A DNA stretch of 5,701 nucleotides from a virus: the IMG/VR virus record IMGVR_UViG_3300045988_014663, positions 1-5,701 of that record; one strand, given 5' to 3'. The notes beneath the pieces are model-generated. The model did not search any database. It was not told the DNA's origin and was given only the letters and a program-made list of their open reading frames with translations. The first letter of the stretch is position 1. The number at the start of each line of letters is the position of its first letter. Both the position numbers and the translations under genes were made by a program. Below, one piece after another: positions 1 to 5,701 of the stretch.

Positions 1-55
1 GCCTTTTCTACTGCGTCTTTGGCTTTTTCTCCCGCTTTCGCAAGGCCTGAACCTA
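1..55. repeat. Terminal direct repeat, copy 1 of 2, identical to 5647..5701; indicates a circular genome of 5646 nt
   Basis: A base-by-base comparison shows gccttttctactgcgtctttggctttttctcccgctttcgcaaggcctgaaccta at both ends (55/55). A reading frame runs unbroken across the join. Confidence 0.97.
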
Positions 56-755
56 ACTTGTTAGCTGCGTAGCTGTACTGCTGTGCTTGTTTTGCGCTTG
101 AGGTTGCCAGCTCGCTTGCTGCCTGTTCCCAGCTTTTTGCACTCTTAATTTGCTTTGCGCTGGTGGCCTGTTTTGCTAGCTGTAAGTATTTGTCTGCCAG
201 CTCTGCTGTGTTGTTGCCGTATTCGTACATAGCGCTTACACTTGCAGCCTGTGCGCTCTGCTGGTTATAATGTTGGCTTCCAATGCTTGCAGATGCTCCC
301 GATGGTGCGCTTGTTGCCCCGTTGGTCGCTGCCAGAATAGGATTGATGCCCGCTGCAATCATGTCCTTCACGGTGTCCTGATAGGCTGTTCCGCGCATTT
401 CCTTTTGGAAAGCCCGTTCTGCTGCCGCTTCTGCGCTGTTGTATTTCTTGGCGCTCGCCTGACTTCCAGCGTTTGCGAGGTTGCTAAGTAGTCCGCTCAT
501 CATTTGTAACGCGTTTGCGGTGTTTACACTGCTCTGGTTGCCAAATGTGGTAATGCCTGTTGGTGTGCTGATTTGTGTTGCTCCTATCTGCTGCGGTGCT
601 GTTACACTGCCCGTTGTGCTCTCGCTGCCTGTGCTGCTCTCGCTGCCGGCTCCTTGGCTGTTCTTGGCGCTGCTCTGGTTACTGTTCGTTATGATGCCTG
701 TTAACATGCTCAGTCCTTGCATGAGGTACGGCATAAAGCTTAACAATGTTTCCAT
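1..755 (-). CDS. VP2: Minor capsid / DNA pilot protein VP2, N-terminal 251 codons plus 2 nt. The ORF continues round the circle into 5529..5646, for 290 aa in total.
   Basis: Hand translation from ATG 755..753 gives METLLSFMPYLMQGLSMLTGIITNSNQ..., with no stop before position 1. The frame rejoins at 5646 and ends at TAA 5531..5529. The protein has a hydrophobic N-terminus and an S/G/T/A/Q-rich low-complexity stretch. It also carries AERAFQKEMRGTAYQDTVKDMIAAGINPILA, which matches the AYQ..V.DM..AG.NPIL signature I associate with gokushovirus VP2. In-frame ATGs at 734, 722 and 707 are alternative starts. Confidence 0.85.
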   Translation of the reverse strand, partial: METLLSFMPYLMQGLSMLTGIITNSNQSSAKNSQGAGSESSTGSESTTGSVTAPQQIGATQISTPTGITTFGNQSSVNTANALQMMSGLLSNLANAGSQASAKKYNSAEAAAERAFQKEMRGTAYQDTVKDMIAAGINPILAATNGATSAPSGASASIGSQHYNQQSAQAASVSAMYEYGNNTAELADKYLQLAKQATSAKQIKSAKSWEQAASELATSSAKQAQQYSYAANKLGSGLAKAGEKAKDAVEK

Positions 756-757
756 TC

Positions 758-783
758 AAAAATAGCCCCGCTTTTGCGGGGCT
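758..783 (-). terminator. GC-rich hairpin plus T5 between VP1 and VP2; probably a leaky intrinsic terminator or RNA structure
   Basis: The stem pairs agccccgc (764..771) with gcggggct (776..783) around a tttt loop. On the minus strand it is followed by ATTTTTG (763..757). It starts 10 nt after the VP1 stop and ends 8 nt before the VP2 ATG. Confidence 0.6.
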
Positions 784-784
784 T

Positions 785-790
785 CCTCCT
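785..790 (-). promoter_or_regulatory. Shine-Dalgarno AGGAGG, presumably for VP2, separated from the ATG by the 764..783 hairpin
   Basis: cctcct on the plus strand reads AGGAGG on the minus strand. It lies 29 nt before ATG 755 in linear sequence, but about 9 nt away if the 20-nt hairpin folds. Confidence 0.5.
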
Positions 791-793
791 TTC

Positions 794-2473
794 TTAGATT
801 CTTTCGACGCCGGGAATGCTGTAGATAGGCATCTCGCGGTACCATTCTTCGTCGAAGTAGAAGTCACACAAGAACTGGTGACTTTTTTCGCTCGTCACTG
901 CAATTGTTCGGTCGATGTTCTGCGTTCCTTCCTGAATCCACTCTGCCGAGAGATGCGGCAGTTTATCATAGTCGTCTGCATAGTGCCATGCGTCCAAACT
1001 CGTCTGGTAGTTAGACCGCATTTCTCCCGTTACATAGGATGGCTTGTATCGATAATCCGCCCATGCTTCTTGGTAGCCGAAGATTTCACCATCTTCAGCC
1101 GTGCCCTGTGCATAGATTTCGCGGTTATACACCGGTTGTTCGCCCAAGGCTGCAAGTCTCGGGTCGTAGTAGGTGAATCGCCCGCCACGTGTCCACTTGG
1201 TCGCGAGTCCTTGCTGGTAGCTGTGCTCCACTCGTACCACTGCCAGACCGATGATATAGCCGTATTCGGTCGCTGCATAGTCTACCATCTGTTTGCTGCA
1301 TGTGGTTAGACTGTATGCCGCCGTATTGCCCAGTGCCTGTTTGGTTGTCGGGTCCGTCTGGCTCGTCTGTACGACCTGATTCACATTGATCGCGATGCGC
1401 TGTCCGCCGATGTACTCAGGAATCTGTAGACGGCTGTCCGGACTTGTTACGCCCCACGTACCAGACAGGAACTCACGGTATCGCGTGCCGTTGCGTGCAT
1501 CTGCTTCAAAAATGTGCTGCAAGGCGATTGCCATGCGCAAGTCCTGAATGCTAATTGTGTTTACGTTGCTAAGGTCTGCGAACATATAACCGCCCGCTCC
1601 AACTTCGCCGTCCATTACTCCTGTGAATTGTATTTTTTTATCGTTTGAGTTTCCTGCGTATGCCAATGATCCTGCTCTACTTTGGCTTGCGGCTGTGCCT
1701 GTGCCTAAAACCATTTCTGGACCGCGGCCCGTTTCCAGGCTTGGAATCGTTGTGCCATCGGAATTTCCCAGTTTAATCGGCGCATTGCCCGTCAGGCTGA
1801 TTTCCACTGGGTCAGATTTAAGCGGACTTGGTAAACAGCTGGTGAAGTAGTCGTGGAATTTTCCCGCCTTTGCCGGAAACCGAGCATATAAGCTTGCTTC
1901 GTTTGTGTTTGTTGTTAGGTCTGGTTTGTTTACGTAGTAATCTTTGTTGTCGTTGCCGGGTGTCTGGTCAGTTCCCCCGTCATCGTCTTTTTTATAGCCT
2001 AGCATTAACGGTGCTTCAAGGTTTTCATCTCTGAACCACTCATTGTAGATCATGGCGTAGGCGCGTGCTGGAAGTGCGTTGACCTTGATTGCGTTTTTGA
2101 CTCCGGTCGGCAGTCCGAAGTAGTCGCCAATGCTGCCTTTTACAAGGCCGCTTTTGCCGCCGATTGTGCAAGTCGGCGTGCTGTATTCGGTCTTTTCTGC
2201 CCAATAGTCGGTATCATTTTCGCCGAACATATTTTCCCAGTGTTCCCACAGCAGACGGCACGGAACAAAGAAGAAATAGGTGTCCATGTAGCAGTTATCC
2301 ATGATAGGATAGATAGGTGTGCTCATACGGATGAGGCCGTTCAGGCGTACACGTGCGGTATCACCCGGAAGTACTTCATCACAGTAGATGGGCACTAGGT
2401 CGCCCTCGTTGATGGTCGTCAAGAGCTGGTGACTGCGGTCAAATTTGCTTCGCGGTCGTTCCATCCGCGGCAC
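794..2473 (-). CDS. VP1: Major capsid protein VP1 (Microviridae F-protein family), 559 aa
   Basis: The N-terminus SKFDRSHQLLTTINEGDLVPIYCDEVLPGDTARVRLNGLIRMSTPIYPIMDNCYMDTYFFFVPCRLLWEHWENMFG matches the conserved microvirus capsid N-terminal pattern (G.L.P, EVLPGD, FFFVP.RL.W..W). The length is typical of gokushovirus-like VP1. Codon 2473 is GTG, and the first ATG is at 2464 (MERPRSKF...). No clear SD precedes either start, so translation may be coupled to the VP3 stop at 2490. Confidence 0.95.
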   Translation of the reverse strand: MPRMERPRSKFDRSHQLLTTINEGDLVPIYCDEVLPGDTARVRLNGLIRMSTPIYPIMDNCYMDTYFFFVPCRLLWEHWENMFGENDTDYWAEKTEYSTPTCTIGGKSGLVKGSIGDYFGLPTGVKNAIKVNALPARAYAMIYNEWFRDENLEAPLMLGYKKDDDGGTDQTPGNDNKDYYVNKPDLTTNTNEASLYARFPAKAGKFHDYFTSCLPSPLKSDPVEISLTGNAPIKLGNSDGTTIPSLETGRGPEMVLGTGTAASQSRAGSLAYAGNSNDKKIQFTGVMDGEVGAGGYMFADLSNVNTISIQDLRMAIALQHIFEADARNGTRYREFLSGTWGVTSPDSRLQIPEYIGGQRIAINVNQVVQTSQTDPTTKQALGNTAAYSLTTCSKQMVDYAATEYGYIIGLAVVRVEHSYQQGLATKWTRGGRFTYYDPRLAALGEQPVYNREIYAQGTAEDGEIFGYQEAWADYRYKPSYVTGEMRSNYQTSLDAWHYADDYDKLPHLSAEWIQEGTQNIDRTIAVTSEKSHQFLCDFYFDEEWYREMPIYSIPGVERI

Positions 2474-2489
2474 TTGCGCAAAATGGTTT

Positions 2490-2909
2490 TCACTGTTTCG
2501 GTTCGTTTTCCTTCACCTCTTCCTTTTTTTCTTCCGGCTTCGGCTGTTCGGTCTGCTGCACCTGTTTCAGCTGTTCCAGCGTTTTGGCTGCCGTTTCGGC
2601 CTTTTCGTGCATTGTCATGATGTCTTTTGGCAGATTTTCGAGGTCGGTGCCCTCGGTGTATACCATGCTTTTAGCCTTGATGCTGGTATCTCCAGCTTCC
2701 AGCCGTGCGATTGCGCTTGCAAGGTCGTAGCCTTCGCCGGCTCGCTGGATTTTTTGGTATGTGTTCTCGTCCGGCTGCTCGATGTAGTCGGTTGTGCCAT
2801 TCGGTCGCTTTACCGCTTTCCACGTTGGCGCGGTCATGCTGCCCGGATTGTTTGTCACTCTCTCGGTCGGTAGTCCGTAGTATCTTACCAGTGTATCAGG
2901 ATTTAACAT
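2490..2909 (-). CDS. VP3: Internal scaffolding protein VP3-like, 139 aa
   Basis: ATG 2909 is preceded by GAAGGAGA with 6-nt spacing, and the gene sits immediately upstream of VP1. Its size, the central YQKIQ...DL..I..R...GD segment and the acidic/lysine-rich C-terminal tail resemble gokushovirus VP3. This assignment rests on memory of the family, not on a search. Confidence 0.7.
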   Translation of the reverse strand: MLNPDTLVRYYGLPTERVTNNPGSMTAPTWKAVKRPNGTTDYIEQPDENTYQKIQRAGEGYDLASAIARLEAGDTSIKAKSMVYTEGTDLENLPKDIMTMHEKAETAAKTLEQLKQVQQTEQPKPEEKKEEVKENEPKQ

Positions 2910-3150
2910 TGGCTGTCTCCTTCAGGTCGATGAGCCGTGCGATGTGTTCAGGCATTGCCTCGCTCATGTAGCCGGTTTCGGTGTCGAACTCGCCCAGCTC
3001 CACGAGTGAAATATCTTCAATTTCGCTGGGCTTGCTCTCGTTGGCCTTCCATCGTGCCGTTCTAACTGCCTGTGCTCGGTTGTTCTGCAGAAACGGCTGA
3101 GAATAGCCGTTGGTCAATGCATCGTGGAATGAGTAGAATTTCAGTTTCAT
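2896..3150 (-). CDS. VP5: VP5-like small non-structural protein, 84 aa
   Basis: ATG 3150 is preceded by AAGGAGA. The sequence FYSFHDALTNGYSQPFLQNNRAQAVRTARW...EDISLVELGEFDTETGYM fits the gokushovirus ORF5/VP5 pattern I recall (D.ka..y..PF......A.R.F ... D..L..iGeFD..tG). It overlaps the VP3 start by 14 nt. Confidence 0.65.
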   Translation of the reverse strand: MKLKFYSFHDALTNGYSQPFLQNNRAQAVRTARWKANESKPSEIEDISLVELGEFDTETGYMSEAMPEHIARLIDLKETANVKS

Positions 3151-3161
3151 GTTTTTCTCCT

Positions 3162-3278
3162 TTACTTTTTGTCTTCGCTTGCATTCTTCAGCGCGTGGTA
3201 GATCTCGTCGAGCTTTTCAAGGATTCTCATCATCAGCGCGATCGCTTCCTTGACGTCCTTGACCTTGATCAGTGCCAT
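3162..3278 (-). CDS. Hypothetical 38-aa protein MALIKVKDVKEAIALMMRILEKLDEIYHALKNASEDKK (not in the ORF track)
   Basis: Hand translated. ATG 3278 is preceded by AAAAGAGGTGATTTA, a strong GAGGTGA SD at about 4-5 nt. Its TAA (3164..3162) is embedded in the SD of the next gene (TAAAGGAGA). It looks like an amphipathic helix, and I recognise no homology. Confidence 0.45.
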   Translation of the reverse strand: MALIKVKDVKEAIALMMRILEKLDEIYHALKNASEDKK

Positions 3279-3307
3279 TAAATCACCTCTTTTTTGGTTT
3301 GTGTCGT

Positions 3308-3424
3308 TTACAGCCGGATACCGCCCCGCGATACCTTCGGCCGGACGTTGATGTTTTTTACCCGCTTTGCAGTCTGGGTAAAACGTTTCTGGTCGCCTTG
3401 ACCCGCTCCGCTTCTATGTGCCAT
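3308..3424 (-). CDS. Small basic DNA-binding/packaging protein (gokushovirus ORF8/VP8-like, a functional analogue of phiX174 J), 38 aa (not in the ORF track)
   Basis: Hand translation gives MAHRSGAGQGDQKRFTQTAKRVKNINVRPKVSRGGIRL, with 9 Arg+Lys against 1 acidic residue. The ..KR.F..TA.R....N.......RGGIRL C-terminus matches small basic proteins I recall from gokushovirus-like genomes. The SD AAGGGAG lies 7 nt before ATG 3424. The start overlaps the end of the 71-aa ORF by 11 nt in another frame. Confidence 0.6.
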   Translation of the reverse strand: MAHRSGAGQGDQKRFTQTAKRVKNINVRPKVSRGGIRL

Positions 3425-3629
3425 CGTTATACTCCCTTCTGATTAGCTCTATTTCGATGGTCTTTACAAAACTTTTTATCTGCCAAGTTTCATCTATTAG
3501 CCTTTTTGCGTCTTCGATGTTTGACACTTTTTTAAGCATTTTGTAATTGCCATCAATTTCTTTGTATTTTCGTGTGATTAGTTCTTCCAATGTTTCTTTG
3601 GTCTGGTCTCGTGCATTCCATGCTTTCAT
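3414..3629 (-). CDS. Hypothetical 71-aa protein, charged and helical, with no TM segment
   Basis: The ORF track extends this ORF to 3704, but ATG 3629 has SD AAAGGGGG and lies 2 nt after the peptidase stop (GGGGGTATAACAATG). I therefore prefer MKAWNARDQTKETLEELITRKYKEIDGNYKMLKKVSNIEDAKRLIDETWQIKSFVKTIEIELIRREYNDGT. I recognise no family. Confidence 0.6.
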   Translation of the reverse strand: MKAWNARDQTKETLEELITRKYKEIDGNYKMLKKVSNIEDAKRLIDETWQIKSFVKTIEIELIRREYNDGT

Positions 3630-3631
3630 TG

Positions 3632-4021
3632 TTATACCCCCTTTCTGTATTTGCTGTTGCGCGTGTCGATATGTACCCATGTATCGTATACGATTATGCC
3701 GCATTCATCTGGAATGATTTTATTCAGTTTGTTGGCAATTTCTTTTGCGGTCATGCCATTAATCCGGATGTCTGCTGCCATTCCTCGCATGTGGTATGAG
3801 TACTTTGCACCGCCTACCGCTTTATTCCTTGCCGGTGTCCGGTATCCACTGTTGATGATTACAGGCTTTCCGACATGGTTTCTGAGGATGTCTAGGATTG
3901 ATACTAGGTAGCTGTCTATAAAAACTACCTGTGAGCCGTCTTTGCAAGCGAATTCTCGCACTTTGAAGTGTTGTCCTACTTTTTCGTTTGCGTCTGTATC
4001 CATGATATAGCTTTTAATCAT
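3632..4021 (-). CDS. Zinc D,D- or L,D-peptidase of the M15 family (Peptidase_M15_3/M15A-like), a putative peptidoglycan hydrolase, 129 aa
   Basis: Recognised motifs are FKVREFACKDG, INSGYRTPARNKAVGGAKYSYHMRGMAADI (SxHxxGxAxD, providing His and Asp Zn ligands) and WVHIDTR (the third His). The track ORF starts at TTG 4048. ATG 4021, preceded by GGGAGA about 9 nt upstream, is the more likely start. There is no signal peptide or TM segment. Confidence 0.88.
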   Translation of the reverse strand: MIKSYIMDTDANEKVGQHFKVREFACKDGSQVVFIDSYLVSILDILRNHVGKPVIINSGYRTPARNKAVGGAKYSYHMRGMAADIRINGMTAKEIANKLNKIIPDECGIIVYDTWVHIDTRNSKYRKGV

Positions 4022-4078
4022 TTTTTGTTTCTCCCATTCTTTTTTCAAGGTTCTTGAGTTTCGCTGCTTCTTGCCCTT

Positions 4079-4106
4079 ATCTTATCATGTTTTTGATTGT
4101 TGTCAA
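4079..4106 (-). promoter_or_regulatory. Putative sigma70-type promoter driving the peptidase and downstream genes
   Basis: On the minus strand there is a perfect -35 TTGACA (4106..4101). A 16-nt spacer ends in TGA, giving an extended -10 TGn, followed by -10 TAAGAT (4084..4079). An A8 tract (4114..4107) sits directly upstream, like an UP element. This is a prediction from consensus only. Confidence 0.45.
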
Positions 4107-4121
4107 TTTTTTTTGGTTTGA

Positions 4122-4139
4122 AAGGCGCTTTAGCGCCTT
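4122..4139. other. 7-bp GC-rich hairpin in the Rep-peptidase intergenic region
   Basis: aaggcgc (4122..4128) pairs with gcgcctt (4133..4139) around a ttta loop. On the coding strand it is followed by UCAAACC A8 rather than a U-run, so it is not a canonical terminator. Its function is unknown. Confidence 0.4.
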
Positions 4140-4200
4140 GCCGTGTGGAGCGCATGCGGAACTCGGCTTAATAAATTTTTCCTTTTTAGCGCTGTGCGCG

Positions 4201-5205
4201 TTATGTTTTCGGTTCACGCCACTTTTGCTTTAGCTTGTCCTTTTCTTTCTGAATGTTGAGATAGGTTTCGTAATCTACGCTTGTGTTCTGTTCGAGATTG
4301 ACCAAACTTTGTATTGCGCTGCGTCTGCGTCTGGCTCTAACCTCTCTCAGCTCGTCAGAATGTGCCTTAAAATAGCTTTCTGTGTCTTGGCTGGTATCTT
4401 TATCTAGAATCTTATCAAAATAGCGTGGAGGCCTTTTCTCGCGTCCTCCTGAGCATATGATGCTATCTGTTTTTAAGATTTCATCTTTGTGTTCGTTTAG
4501 ATATTTTTCGCCGATACCTTTCGACATGATCCTGAACTCTGGTTCTCTGCCTTCCATCCAGTATTTTGCCGCTTGCTCTGCACCTATGGCTTTTTTGTTG
4601 ACGTACTGTGCTACATATGCGTAGCTACCCGGTTGTGCTGGTGAAAAGTCTATCATGCCTTTGCCCCAGATTTTTTCTAGCCACTCGCTTTTAAAATAGC
4701 TGTTGCCTTTTTGGTTTTTGTACCATTGTGCATCCGGTGGCTTTAGTCCAAATACTATCGCATGGTAGTGTGGTCTTTTTGTTCTGTCGCCGTATTCGGC
4801 TGCTAGGAAGTATTTTATTGGTTTCTTGTACGCTTTCCGTAGCCGTTTTATAAATAGCTGCACGTCTCGTTTGCTTACTGTCTGGCTTTGAATGCTTCTG
4901 TAGCCTTTGAGAATCTCGCCGTATGGGACATGATCATCGTCATAAGTCAGCGTTAGAAAAATTACATCGTCCCATTCTTTGGCTTCTAGCTCTATTCTAG
5001 TTGCCCATTGGTCAGCTATCTGTTTTCGACAGTATTCGCATTTACCGCATGGTAGCAATGCGAATTTTCCTTTTTTGACTCCGTCCATGATGTCCGTTTG
5101 TAGTCCTTGCTTTGATAGGTTCTCCAGACTTCCCCACAGTTTTGGTTTTTTCGTGTCCATCTGAAATATTAATGGTTTTGTACATGGCATTTTTGTTACC
5201 GGCAC
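4201..5205 (-). CDS. VP4: Rolling-circle replication initiator VP4 (HUH endonuclease, phiX174 gpA-like), 334 aa from GTG 5205 or 329 aa from ATG 5190
   Basis: RCR motif 1 is VIFLTLTYDD, the HUH motif is RPHYHAIVFG, and the two-tyrosine motif 3 is YAYVAQYVNKK. An N-terminal Cys cluster (LPCGKCEYCR) is typical of microvirus Rep. GTG 5205 has AAGGAAG 5 nt upstream, while ATG 5190 has no SD. Confidence 0.92.
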   Translation of the reverse strand: MPVTKMPCTKPLIFQMDTKKPKLWGSLENLSKQGLQTDIMDGVKKGKFALLPCGKCEYCRKQIADQWATRIELEAKEWDDVIFLTLTYDDDHVPYGEILKGYRSIQSQTVSKRDVQLFIKRLRKAYKKPIKYFLAAEYGDRTKRPHYHAIVFGLKPPDAQWYKNQKGNSYFKSEWLEKIWGKGMIDFSPAQPGSYAYVAQYVNKKAIGAEQAAKYWMEGREPEFRIMSKGIGEKYLNEHKDEILKTDSIICSGGREKRPPRYFDKILDKDTSQDTESYFKAHSDELREVRARRRRSAIQSLVNLEQNTSVDYETYLNIQKEKDKLKQKWREPKT

Positions 5206-5232
5206 AAGCTTCCTTGTCTATCTTGTGCCGGT
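5198..5232 (-). promoter_or_regulatory. Perfect 11-bp inverted repeat with a 13-nt loop over the Rep translation start
   Basis: accggcacaag (5198..5208) is the reverse complement of cttgtgccggt (5222..5232). On the coding strand the loop contains the SD AAGGAAG (5215..5209), and the 3' arm contains GTG 5205..5203. Confidence 0.6.
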
Positions 5233-5266
5233 TGACACCTCGCTTTCTTTATATATTAACTTGTTG

Positions 5267-5281
5267 TAGTAGTAGTAGTAG
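5267..5281. repeat. (TAG)5 trinucleotide tract, (CTA)5 on the coding strand
   Basis: tagtagtagtagtag can be read directly and is flanked by ttgttg and tggtgttga, so the period-3 pattern extends further in degenerate form. Confidence 0.9.
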
Positions 5282-5284
5282 TGG

Positions 5285-5451
5285 TGTTGAAAGTGTTGAA
5301 AACTCGTTTTTTTAACGTTACTACGTTTATTTATTGCTTTTTTGCCTGTTGAAAACTTTGTTGAAAACTTGTTGAATTGTTGAATGTTCGTCATAATGAC
5401 GAATTTCTTTGTGCAACTTGTTGTTGAAAACCTGTTGAAAGTGTTGAAAAC
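5285..5451. repeat. Array of nine direct GTTGAA(A/T) iterons, consensus TGTTGAAAAC (GTTTTCAACA on the coding strand), in three clusters
   Basis: The copies lie at 5285..5293, 5294..5303, 5347..5356, 5359..5368, 5371..5377, 5378..5385, 5422..5431, 5433..5441 and 5442..5451. All share one orientation and are spaced 8-12 nt within clusters. An exact 21-nt duplicate tgttgaaagtgttgaaaactc occurs at 5285..5305 and 5433..5453. AACTTGTTG recurs at 5258, 5366 and 5415. An AT-rich spacer (5306..5346) separates clusters 1 and 2. Confidence 0.85.
5387..5403. other. Small hairpin between iteron clusters 2 and 3; candidate ori stem-loop
   Basis: ttcgtc (5387..5392) pairs with gacgaa (5398..5403) around the AT-only loop ataat. 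The stem is short at 6 bp, so this feature alone is weak. Confidence 0.4.
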
Positions 5452-5493
5452 TCAAGTTTTCCACATTCTCTATTTTTTGGATTATTGTTACTG

Positions 5494-5520
5494 AAAAAGG
5501 GGGATGTTTTACCATCCCCC
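5494..5520 (-). terminator. Rho-independent terminator after VP2
   Basis: On the coding strand GGGGGATG-GTAAAA-CATCCCCC forms an 8-bp stem (5520..5513 with 5506..5499). It is followed by TTTTT (5498..5494) and begins 8 nt after the VP2 stop. Confidence 0.7.
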
Positions 5521-5528
5521 TTCCTTTC

Positions 5529-5701
5529 TTAGTCTCCTGTGTATGGTTCTCCATGTTTGAACCCATCAATCAGTTTGCGCCTTCTTGCTGTCTTGTTGAT
5601 AGTATCTTCGACTACTTTGTCAATGCCTTCTTTGGTTGCTTTACCAGCCTTTTCTACTGCGTCTTTGGCTTTTTCTCCCGCTTTCGCAAGGCCTGAACCT
5701 A
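5529..5701 (-). CDS. VP2: VP2 C-terminal portion; 5647..5701 duplicates 1..55, so the unique part is 5529..5646
   Basis: The frame from 1..755 continues as ...VEKAGKATKEGIDKVVEDTINKTARRRKLIDGFKHGEPYTGD and ends at TAA 5531..5529. Confidence 0.85.
   Translation of the reverse strand, partial: GSGLAKAGEKAKDAVEKAGKATKEGIDKVVEDTINKTARRRKLIDGFKHGEPYTGD
5647..5701. repeat. Terminal direct repeat, copy 2 of 2, identical to 1..55
   Basis: 55/55 identity to the window start. Confidence 0.97.

Follow-up and report, generated by a model that had tools for sequence, protein, structure and literature searches.

A free-standing M15 peptidase in a gokushovirus genome and its possible accessory role in lysis

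INTRODUCTION

The presence of M15 peptidases in the Microviridae, a family of small single-stranded DNA (ssDNA) phages, their horizontal origin, and their presumed role in lysis have been on record since 2012. Roux et al. (2012; PMC3394797) found such enzymes, of the M15_3 type, in five Gokushovirinae from the human gut and in six Alpavirinae, showed that they had been acquired horizontally with closest relatives in Faecalibacterium, noted an unknown open reading frame (ORF) adjoining the peptidase in 5 of the 11 cases, and put forward an endolysin role, setting the situation against that of protein E of phiX174. Kirchberger et al. (2022; PMC9239249) subsequently placed peptidases among the very few microvirus accessory genes and found that a ~700-nt segment carrying the peptidase had recombined between distant families, and cultured roseophage microviruses with M15 peptidases have also been described (PMC11499846). 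A role in lysis is the consensus for these enzymes (PMC3394797, PMC9239249, PMC11499846), and how an endolysin-type enzyme would reach the wall without a holin is a real and testable point that was already implicit in the 2012 description. Here, we analyze a 129-aa M15 peptidase encoded in the virus record IMGVR_UViG_3300045988_014663 (positions 1 to 5,701; this whole stretch of 5,701 nt is hereafter called the window) and argue that it is probably a transferred endolysin-type enzyme with an accessory role in lysis.

The original prediction for this locus, made from the sequence alone, pointed to M15-like genes in some metagenomic Microviridae, in agreement with Roux et al. (2012; PMC3394797). 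The M15 peptidase of gut gokushoviruses is thus already published and annotated, and the window contributes another member rather than a discovery. The peptidases of that study and of the GenBank genome KX513876 share with the window the peptidase family, the position following VP4, the virus group, the gut origin, and the Faecalibacterium-like affinities. The KX513876 record already labels its homologous gene, whose product is 87% identical to that of the window, as 'peptidase M15'; compared with KX513876, the window adds a 71-aa ORF (ORF71) behind the peptidase, and nothing essential differs.

RESULTS

An M15A zinc peptidase

The peptidase is a free-standing, single-domain protein of 14.6 kDa with an isoelectric point of 9.5. 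It matches Pfam Peptidase_M15_3 (PF08291) with E = 7.8e-24 and 84.3 bits, against a cut-off of 23.2, over 107 of 108 profile positions, and PHROG 894, 'endolysin', with E = 1.9e-45. The motifs YSYHMRGMAAD and WVHID are both found, and H77, D84, H117, and D119 are invariant across 29 homologues; the predicted zinc ligands are H77, D84, and H117 (H-x6-D and the distal His in WVHID), which are also kept in gp86 of Faecalibacterium phage FP_Toutatis. H77-x6-D84 aligns with the zinc site SRHMYGHAAD (SxHxxGxAAD) of 1lbu, the only solved structure reached by sequence search. An alternative TTG start upstream, at 4048, would give a protein of 138 aa, and the ATG at 4021 was accepted because most homologues, among the matches listed, are 129 to 130 aa long, as are nearly all of those listed at the top of the peptidase cluster search. 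The ratio of nonsynonymous to synonymous substitution rates (dN/dS) is 0.13, indicating purifying selection.

The AlphaFold2 (AF2) model of the peptidase has a predicted local distance difference test (pLDDT) score of 74.6, with a core above 85. Its top Foldseek matches in the PDB are VanY, VanXYc, 1lbu, Ply500, LdcB, and hedgehog N-domains (probabilities 0.85 to 1.0, with TM-scores of about 0.4 to 0.6), and a further 37 matches at E ≤ 1e-3 are to viral M15A proteins. VanY, VanXYc, and 1lbu, a Streptomyces albus G zinc D-Ala-D-Ala carboxypeptidase of MEROPS M15A, share the fold and the H-x6-D...H site with the window protein; however, core identity to 1lbu is ~25%, and both 1lbu and VanY carry additional features, an N-terminal peptidoglycan-binding domain in the former and a membrane anchor in the latter. 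Matches to Pfam M15_2 (DUF882; E = 6e-8) and to the NCBIfam MepK model (NF053624; E = 2e-12) were also obtained, but MepK identity was rejected, as the equivalog score of 47.3 bits is far under the 185-bit cut-off and marks the protein as a MepK relative. Escherichia coli MepK (YcbK), a peptidoglycan L,D-endopeptidase, has a related catalytic domain, and JGI calls some homologues of the window peptidase 'YcbK'. MepK is exported, whereas the window peptidase is without a signal peptide. By homology and modeling, then, the 129-aa protein is an intact M15A zinc peptidase of the LAS / Hedgehog-DD-peptidase fold (clan MD), and this family assignment is secure. The original prediction of an M15-type zinc peptidase with intact metal-ligand motifs agrees with the Pfam and PHROG matches and the invariant ligands, and the structural comparison that it proposed, by AlphaFold and Foldseek, returned the LAS fold with VanY and VanXYc matched; the cut-off of the NCBIfam MepK model was missed.

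The family is large. At E ≤ 1e-5, the peptidase matches 1,984 protein clusters, many of them on contigs of ~5.7 kb, while tblastn matched 773 phage records, including dozens of microviruses, and at least 173 IMG/VR contigs carry close relatives.

Membrane proteins in the genome and its relatives

Among ORFs of at least 25 aa in all three coding-strand frames, none has a 19-residue hydropathy (KD19) above 1.42, a maximum reached by the N-terminus of VP2. The N-terminus of the peptidase is hydrophilic, with no signal peptide and no signal-arrest-release (SAR) sequence. No transmembrane ORF was found at a conserved position in ~160 peptidase-carrying microvirus loci, and none was found in three more divergent peptidase-carrying genomes. 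The earlier claim that the coding strand holds no transmembrane ORF apart from the VP2 N-terminus, and that the peptidase lacks a secretion signal, thus extends from the genome to the clade, and the E-like membrane lysis ORF whose discovery would have counted against the original prediction is present on no coding-strand frame.

Set against the canonical holin-endolysin system, the locus supplies a muralytic enzyme, recognized by homology only, and neither a holin nor a signal or SAR sequence. The small, often overprinted membrane protein of E-type single-gene lysis is likewise missing, and an overprinted E-like gene was rejected, as a transmembrane segment occurs in no coding-strand frame. 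phiX174 resembles the window in being a small ssDNA phage that achieves lysis with minimal coding and no holin-endolysin pair; however, its E is an overprinted small membrane protein that inhibits MraY, whereas the candidate effector of the window is a soluble enzyme with no transmembrane ORF beside it. Three further candidates were rejected: an antisense transmembrane gene, a hydrophobic 59-aa ORF at 4054..4233 on the opposite strand that is broken by stops and frameshifts in relatives; other hydrophobic plus-strand ORFs, which are at chance expectation for a T-rich strand; and ORF71 and the 38-aa ORF o38a as holin-like partners, ruled out by hydropathy (KD19 ≤ 1.02) and distribution.

Endolysin relatives in tailed phages and prophages

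The closest tailed-phage homologue is the endolysin gp86 of FP_Toutatis (137 aa), which is 48% identical end to end, aligning with residues 2 to 126 of the window peptidase in the same single-domain architecture. It is followed by gp87, a transmembrane protein (KD19 2.59), and then by the XhlA-like gp88. The closest cellular and prophage homologues are 38 to 50% identical and nearly all from Clostridia (Oscillospiraceae including Faecalibacterium, Lachnospiraceae, and Peptococcaceae). A small same-strand transmembrane ORF lies within 1.2 kb in 22 of 26 bacterial or prophage homologue loci, compared with 16 of 53 control windows (Fisher p = 8e-6). Both gp86 and the Clostridia prophage endolysins are like the window peptidase in size (137 versus 129 aa), motifs, and the lack of a cell-wall-binding domain; unlike gp86, which sits in a lysis cassette with membrane proteins, the window peptidase has no such neighbor. 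These comparisons point to endolysins of tailed phages or prophages of gut Clostridia as the source of the peptidase. A search for the host through prophages turned up no microvirus VP1 at any of 40 matching loci in bacterial assemblies chosen at one genome per species.

Movement of the peptidase segment between lineages

Peptidases with 73 to 95% protein identity occur in two gokushovirus lineages: lineage A, which is window-like (VP4 about 95% and VP1 78 to 92% identical to the window), and lineage B, in which VP1 and VP4 are only about 40% identical to those of the window. The two share a nucleotide block at 4202..3627 that starts with the VP4 stop and ends with the peptidase gene, at 79 to 84% identity; ORF71 and o38a give separate, weaker nucleotide matches between lineages A and B, and almost nothing else in the genome can be aligned. 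Comparison of the genomes thus shows that a ~580-nt segment moves between gokushovirus lineages, an event similar to the one described in PMC9239249, and the mobile unit therefore comprises a hairpin element together with the promoter and the peptidase gene. One IMG/VR contig of 10.7 kb, 3300045988_004182 (L207 / L134), has VP2 and VP4 of lineage A (95%) along with VP5, VP3, and VP1 of the lineage-B type. Being about double the length of a genome, it could represent a chimeric assembly or else a genuine recombinant between the lineages.

Transmembrane mini-ORFs in related clades

In a peptidase-less sister clade, clade C (KT264788-like), ~22 of 38 loci have a single-transmembrane mini-ORF of 32 to 38 aa between VP8 and VP5 that begins with a GTG overlapping the VP8 stop (CTGTGA). 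Its sequences fall into three types, with a dN/dS of about 0.33, and it is a candidate lysis or holin-like gene of gokushoviruses. The VP8 gene of the window terminates in CTGTAA and thus permits no such GTG-start mini-ORF. Examples lie at L160 4756-4872, at L161 2290-2391, and in L164-L195 (e.g., L170 909-1025 and L190 3328-3426); the mini-ORF is unannotated in both GenBank records bearing it (KT264788 and MG945382).

Strict mutual exclusion of the peptidase and the mini-ORF was rejected, since it is true for clades A/B versus C but fails in the lemur 'Dulem' microviruses. These carry the peptidase in the VP8-VP5 slot, which is that of the clade-C mini-ORF, together with a small transmembrane ORF overlapping the end of VP2, an arrangement that looks like an unlinked holin-endolysin pair. 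The Dulem loci are L250 (PP511409; 2593-2700 and 4179-4562), where the transmembrane ORF is annotated as a 35-aa hypothetical protein, and L254 (PP511623). The contrast between peptidase and mini-ORF is therefore a clade-level one, suggestive and built on few independent events.

Genome organization

An exact direct overlap of 55 nt between the end and the start of the window indicates a circular genome of 5,646 nt, all genes of which are on the minus strand (Table 1). The circle falls within the ~4.5 to 6 kb of Gokushovirinae, and VP1, VP2, VP3, VP4, VP5, and VP8 are all on the same strand, as in that subfamily. Pfam matches of the window proteins include Phage_F (E = 5e-150), a Rep domain, and Phage_ORF5; the Chlamydia-phage scaffold family is matched weakly, below threshold. 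The nearest GenBank genome is Human gut gokushovirus KX513876, with 88% nucleotide identity over 91% coverage, and by gene content and similarity the window is a gokushovirus genome (Microviridae). An Rfam scan of the window gave no match. The genome has two compositional halves, with GC of 0.50 to 0.55 across VP2, VP1, and VP3 (window 1-3000) and 0.36 to 0.44 across the small ORFs, the peptidase, VP4, and the intergenic array (window 3250-5500).

Table 1. Features of the circular genome (window coordinates)
Feature	Coordinates	Strand	Remarks
VP2	755..1 joined to 5646..5529	-	290 aa
Intrinsic-terminator-like hairpin with T run	783..764	-	VP1-VP2 gap; 8-bp stem, 7 GC pairs
VP1	2473..794	-	
VP3	2909..2490	-	
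VP5	3150..2896	-	
o38a	3278..3162	-	38-aa ORF
VP8-like ORF	3424..3308	-	38 aa
ORF71	3629..3414	-	71 aa
M15 peptidase	4021..3632	-	129 aa; ATG start
Shine-Dalgarno GGGAGA	4030..4035	-	8 nt 5' of peptidase ATG; relatives have GAGG at the same spot
Sigma-70-type promoter	4106..4079	-	TTGACA, 16 nt, TAAGAT; TG one base before -10 hexamer
Conserved noncoding hairpin element	4122..4202	-	VP4 stop to -35 hexamer, ~80-95 nt
VP4	5205..4201	-	

ORF71, the VP8-like protein, and o38a

The ATG of ORF71 lies 2 nt past the TAA of the peptidase gene (3634..3632), and its Shine-Dalgarno sequence, AAGGGGG, sits within the 3' end of that gene. ORF71 is under purifying selection (dN/dS = 0.18) and has 1,533 homologous clusters, many on microvirus-sized contigs. 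Its AF2 model is a two-helix hairpin (helices 11-32 and 38-70; pLDDT 93.8) for which Foldseek matches solely uncharacterized Microviridae proteins, so the fold gives no function. ORF71 is lacking in 11 of 15 close lineage-A relatives with the peptidase, KX513876 among them, and the order o38a-ORF71-VP8-VP5 is found in every one of four peptidase-less GenBank genomes inspected and in the majority of IMG/VR loci of the peptidase-less clade C. The 2-nt spacing occurs in few genomes only, and the coupling is not conserved. Judged by its distribution and selection, ORF71 is a genuine, widespread gokushovirus accessory gene, neither an ORFan nor a dedicated partner of the peptidase.

The VP8-like protein is very basic, with a C-terminal RGGIRL, and the first 11 nt of its gene lie within the end of ORF71. 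It matches PHROG 10695 (E = 2.9e-06), is present in 78 of 82 loci with a dN/dS of 0.10 to 0.18, and has a homologue annotated as 'DNA binding protein' in the Dulem viruses; it is probably the gokushovirus DNA-binding protein VP8, named as in PMC9239249. The remaining small protein, o38a (MALIKVKDVKEAIALMMRILEKLDEIYHAL...), occurs at 80 of 82 related loci as well as in peptidase-less genomes, with a dN/dS of about 0.10. It lies right behind the peptidase gene in lineage B and ahead of VP5 in the window, had no family match in Pfam, PHROG, or NCBIfam searches, and is probably helical, an impression gained from its sequence only.

Promoter, transcription unit, and noncoding elements

In a promoter consensus scan, the site upstream of the peptidase scored 10 of 12 plus the TG, making it the best in the window and the only strong one on the coding strand. 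Relatives that share the element keep the -35 (TTGAC) and the -10 (TAnnAT, mostly TG-extended), with a spacer that varies. Among 73 unique upstream regions, 78% score at least 11 of 13, compared with 0% of coding controls, and the mean score is 11.1 versus 8.3 for shuffles. A terminator scan found no terminator-like site between the promoter and the hairpin after VP1. With a sole strong coding-strand promoter and no earlier terminator-like site, the whole block is most likely transcribed together: peptidase, ORF71, VP8, o38a, VP5, VP3, and VP1. The original prediction of a cassette with its own promoter, in which a 71-aa ORFan follows with translational coupling, is therefore upheld in part. 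The promoter is real and conserved among relatives, but it heads the whole block from the peptidase to VP1 instead of being private to a peptidase cassette; the 2-nt spacing also stands, whereas the ORFan status falls with the 1,533 clusters, a partnership with the peptidase falls with the distribution of ORF71, and the coupling of the two genes is not conserved.

The hairpin element contains the stems GCCG...CGGC and AAGGCGC-TAAA-GCGCCTT, folds as ssDNA with a dG of -17.5 kcal/mol (z -2.8), and is kept across lineages whose VP4 is only 39% identical. It could be a complementary-strand origin or a structure at the end of the VP4 transcript. The window lacks a further short, hydrophilic ORF of ~59 to 65 aa (the u59/u60/u65 group) that is carried by many loci of lineage A and clade C. 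Where the peptidase is present, this ORF separates its gene from the conserved promoter; in peptidase-less genomes, the ORF precedes o38a. KX513876 has it without annotation (L001, about 1000-1358).

Few stretches can be aligned with lineage-B genomes at the nucleotide level; one is the VP1-VP2 junction (window 753-833, minus strand; 74 to 78%), which holds the GC-rich terminator-like hairpin. Antisense to the genes, the VP2-VP4 intergenic region repeats TGTTGAAA(A/C) ~10 times within 5253-5455; it also has a (GTA)n run at 5267-5283 and a TTCGTCAtaATGACGAA hairpin at 5388-5404. The ~200-nt TGTTGAAA array is also found in lineage-B genomes, 76 to 80% identical, inverted and relocated to between VP4 and the hairpin, promoter, and peptidase segment. 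The array could serve as a set of iteron-like binding sites for a protein or belong to a replication origin.

DISCUSSION

The explanation that we favor as a whole, with moderate confidence, is that the window encodes a transferred endolysin-type peptidase that has an accessory role in lysis and gains access to the wall through a membrane lesion made by a core function. A free-standing M15A peptidase would be expressed with VP8, VP5, VP3, and VP1 from the shared promoter and would cut peptide stems or cross-links of peptidoglycan, aiding the release of progeny at lysis. We speculate that the enzyme reaches the wall only after a core gokushovirus function has compromised the membrane, for which the N-terminal hydrophobic helix of VP2 is one candidate. 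The peptidase would thereby act as an accelerator of lysis that exploits the lesion and not as a self-sufficient lysis system. The six-gene gokushovirus EC6098, which has neither a peptidase nor a transmembrane ORF, lyses E. coli (PMC7062461), so the core genes alone would already have to be capable of breaching the envelope.

Several points weigh against this explanation. The bond specificity, timing, and activity of the peptidase are all inferred, the membrane-compromising core function is hypothetical, and in the open-access literature we found no biochemical or genetic study of any microvirus peptidase. The structural support is qualified by an AF2 pLDDT of only 74.6 and by a best Foldseek PDB E-value that is weak (3.7e-3) despite probabilities of 0.99 to 1.0, and the link of the phage to Clostridia rests solely on the similarity of the donor gene. 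The peptidase also shows no feature that sets it apart from holin-dependent homologues and would account for its access to the wall.

The same enzyme might instead act at entry, packaged in or on the virion and opening the wall locally at genome delivery in the manner of the virion-associated lysins of tailed phages. M15A domains do occur within very large tailed-phage structural or ejection proteins (such as 'cell wall hydrolase' proteins of 1,020 to 1,191 aa and gp5-like proteins), and opening the wall at entry would be useful on a thick-walled Clostridial host, should that be the host. However, the peptidase of the window is free-standing, without fusion to VP2 or another structural protein, soluble endolysins rather than structural proteins are its closest relatives, and many sister genomes do without it, all of which makes a function at entry quite improbable.

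Action within the cytoplasm, as a kind of enzymatic protein antibiotic, is a different matter, as it would dispense with export altogether. The peptidase would trim wall precursors, removing D-Ala from UDP-MurNAc-pentapeptide as VanXYc does or acting on lipid II, or else would cleave the stem; cross-linking would be blocked, growing cells would lyse, and the outcome of phiX174 E would be reached by catalysis. The absence of an encoded export route in the genome and in the ~160 related loci is in keeping with this idea, as are the best solved matches, which are DD-carboxypeptidases acting on pentapeptide termini (VanY, VanXYc, and 1lbu, a 'muramoyl-pentapeptide carboxypeptidase'), and VanX and VanXYc work in the cytoplasm. 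If true, it would explain how hundreds of microvirus genomes come to have the enzyme and no membrane partner, and the peptidase would do by enzymatic means what the 'protein antibiotic' lysis proteins do for small phages. We nonetheless consider it quite to very unlikely. The nearest homologues, at 48% identity, are endolysins in cassettes with membrane proteins, which implies that their substrate is the mature wall and that their accumulation in the cytoplasm is harmless, and the microvirus protein carries no distinguishing change relative to gp86. That ORF71 or o38a is an unconventional membrane-active partner releasing the peptidase is very doubtful, for although the genes are tightly packed (gaps of +1 to +7 nt in lineage B and 2 nt in the window) and both proteins are under purifying selection and largely helical (ORF71 by its AF2 model, o38a by sequence impression), neither has a hydrophobic segment (KD19 ≤ 1.02) or resembles holin, spanin, or disruptin families, ORF71 is missing from most of the close peptidase-carrying genomes (11 of 15), and both occur in peptidase-less genomes in the same order beside VP8 and VP5.

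The comparison presented here provides concrete constructs for work on gokushovirus lysis, namely, the promoter-plus-gene segment, the tailed-phage and prophage homologues with their usual small transmembrane neighbors, and the coupled transmembrane mini-ORF often found in clade C. Gokushoviruses are among the most abundant ssDNA phages of guts and oceans, and the occurrence in them of a soluble hydrolase without an encoded route across the membrane sharpens the question of how they lyse their hosts.

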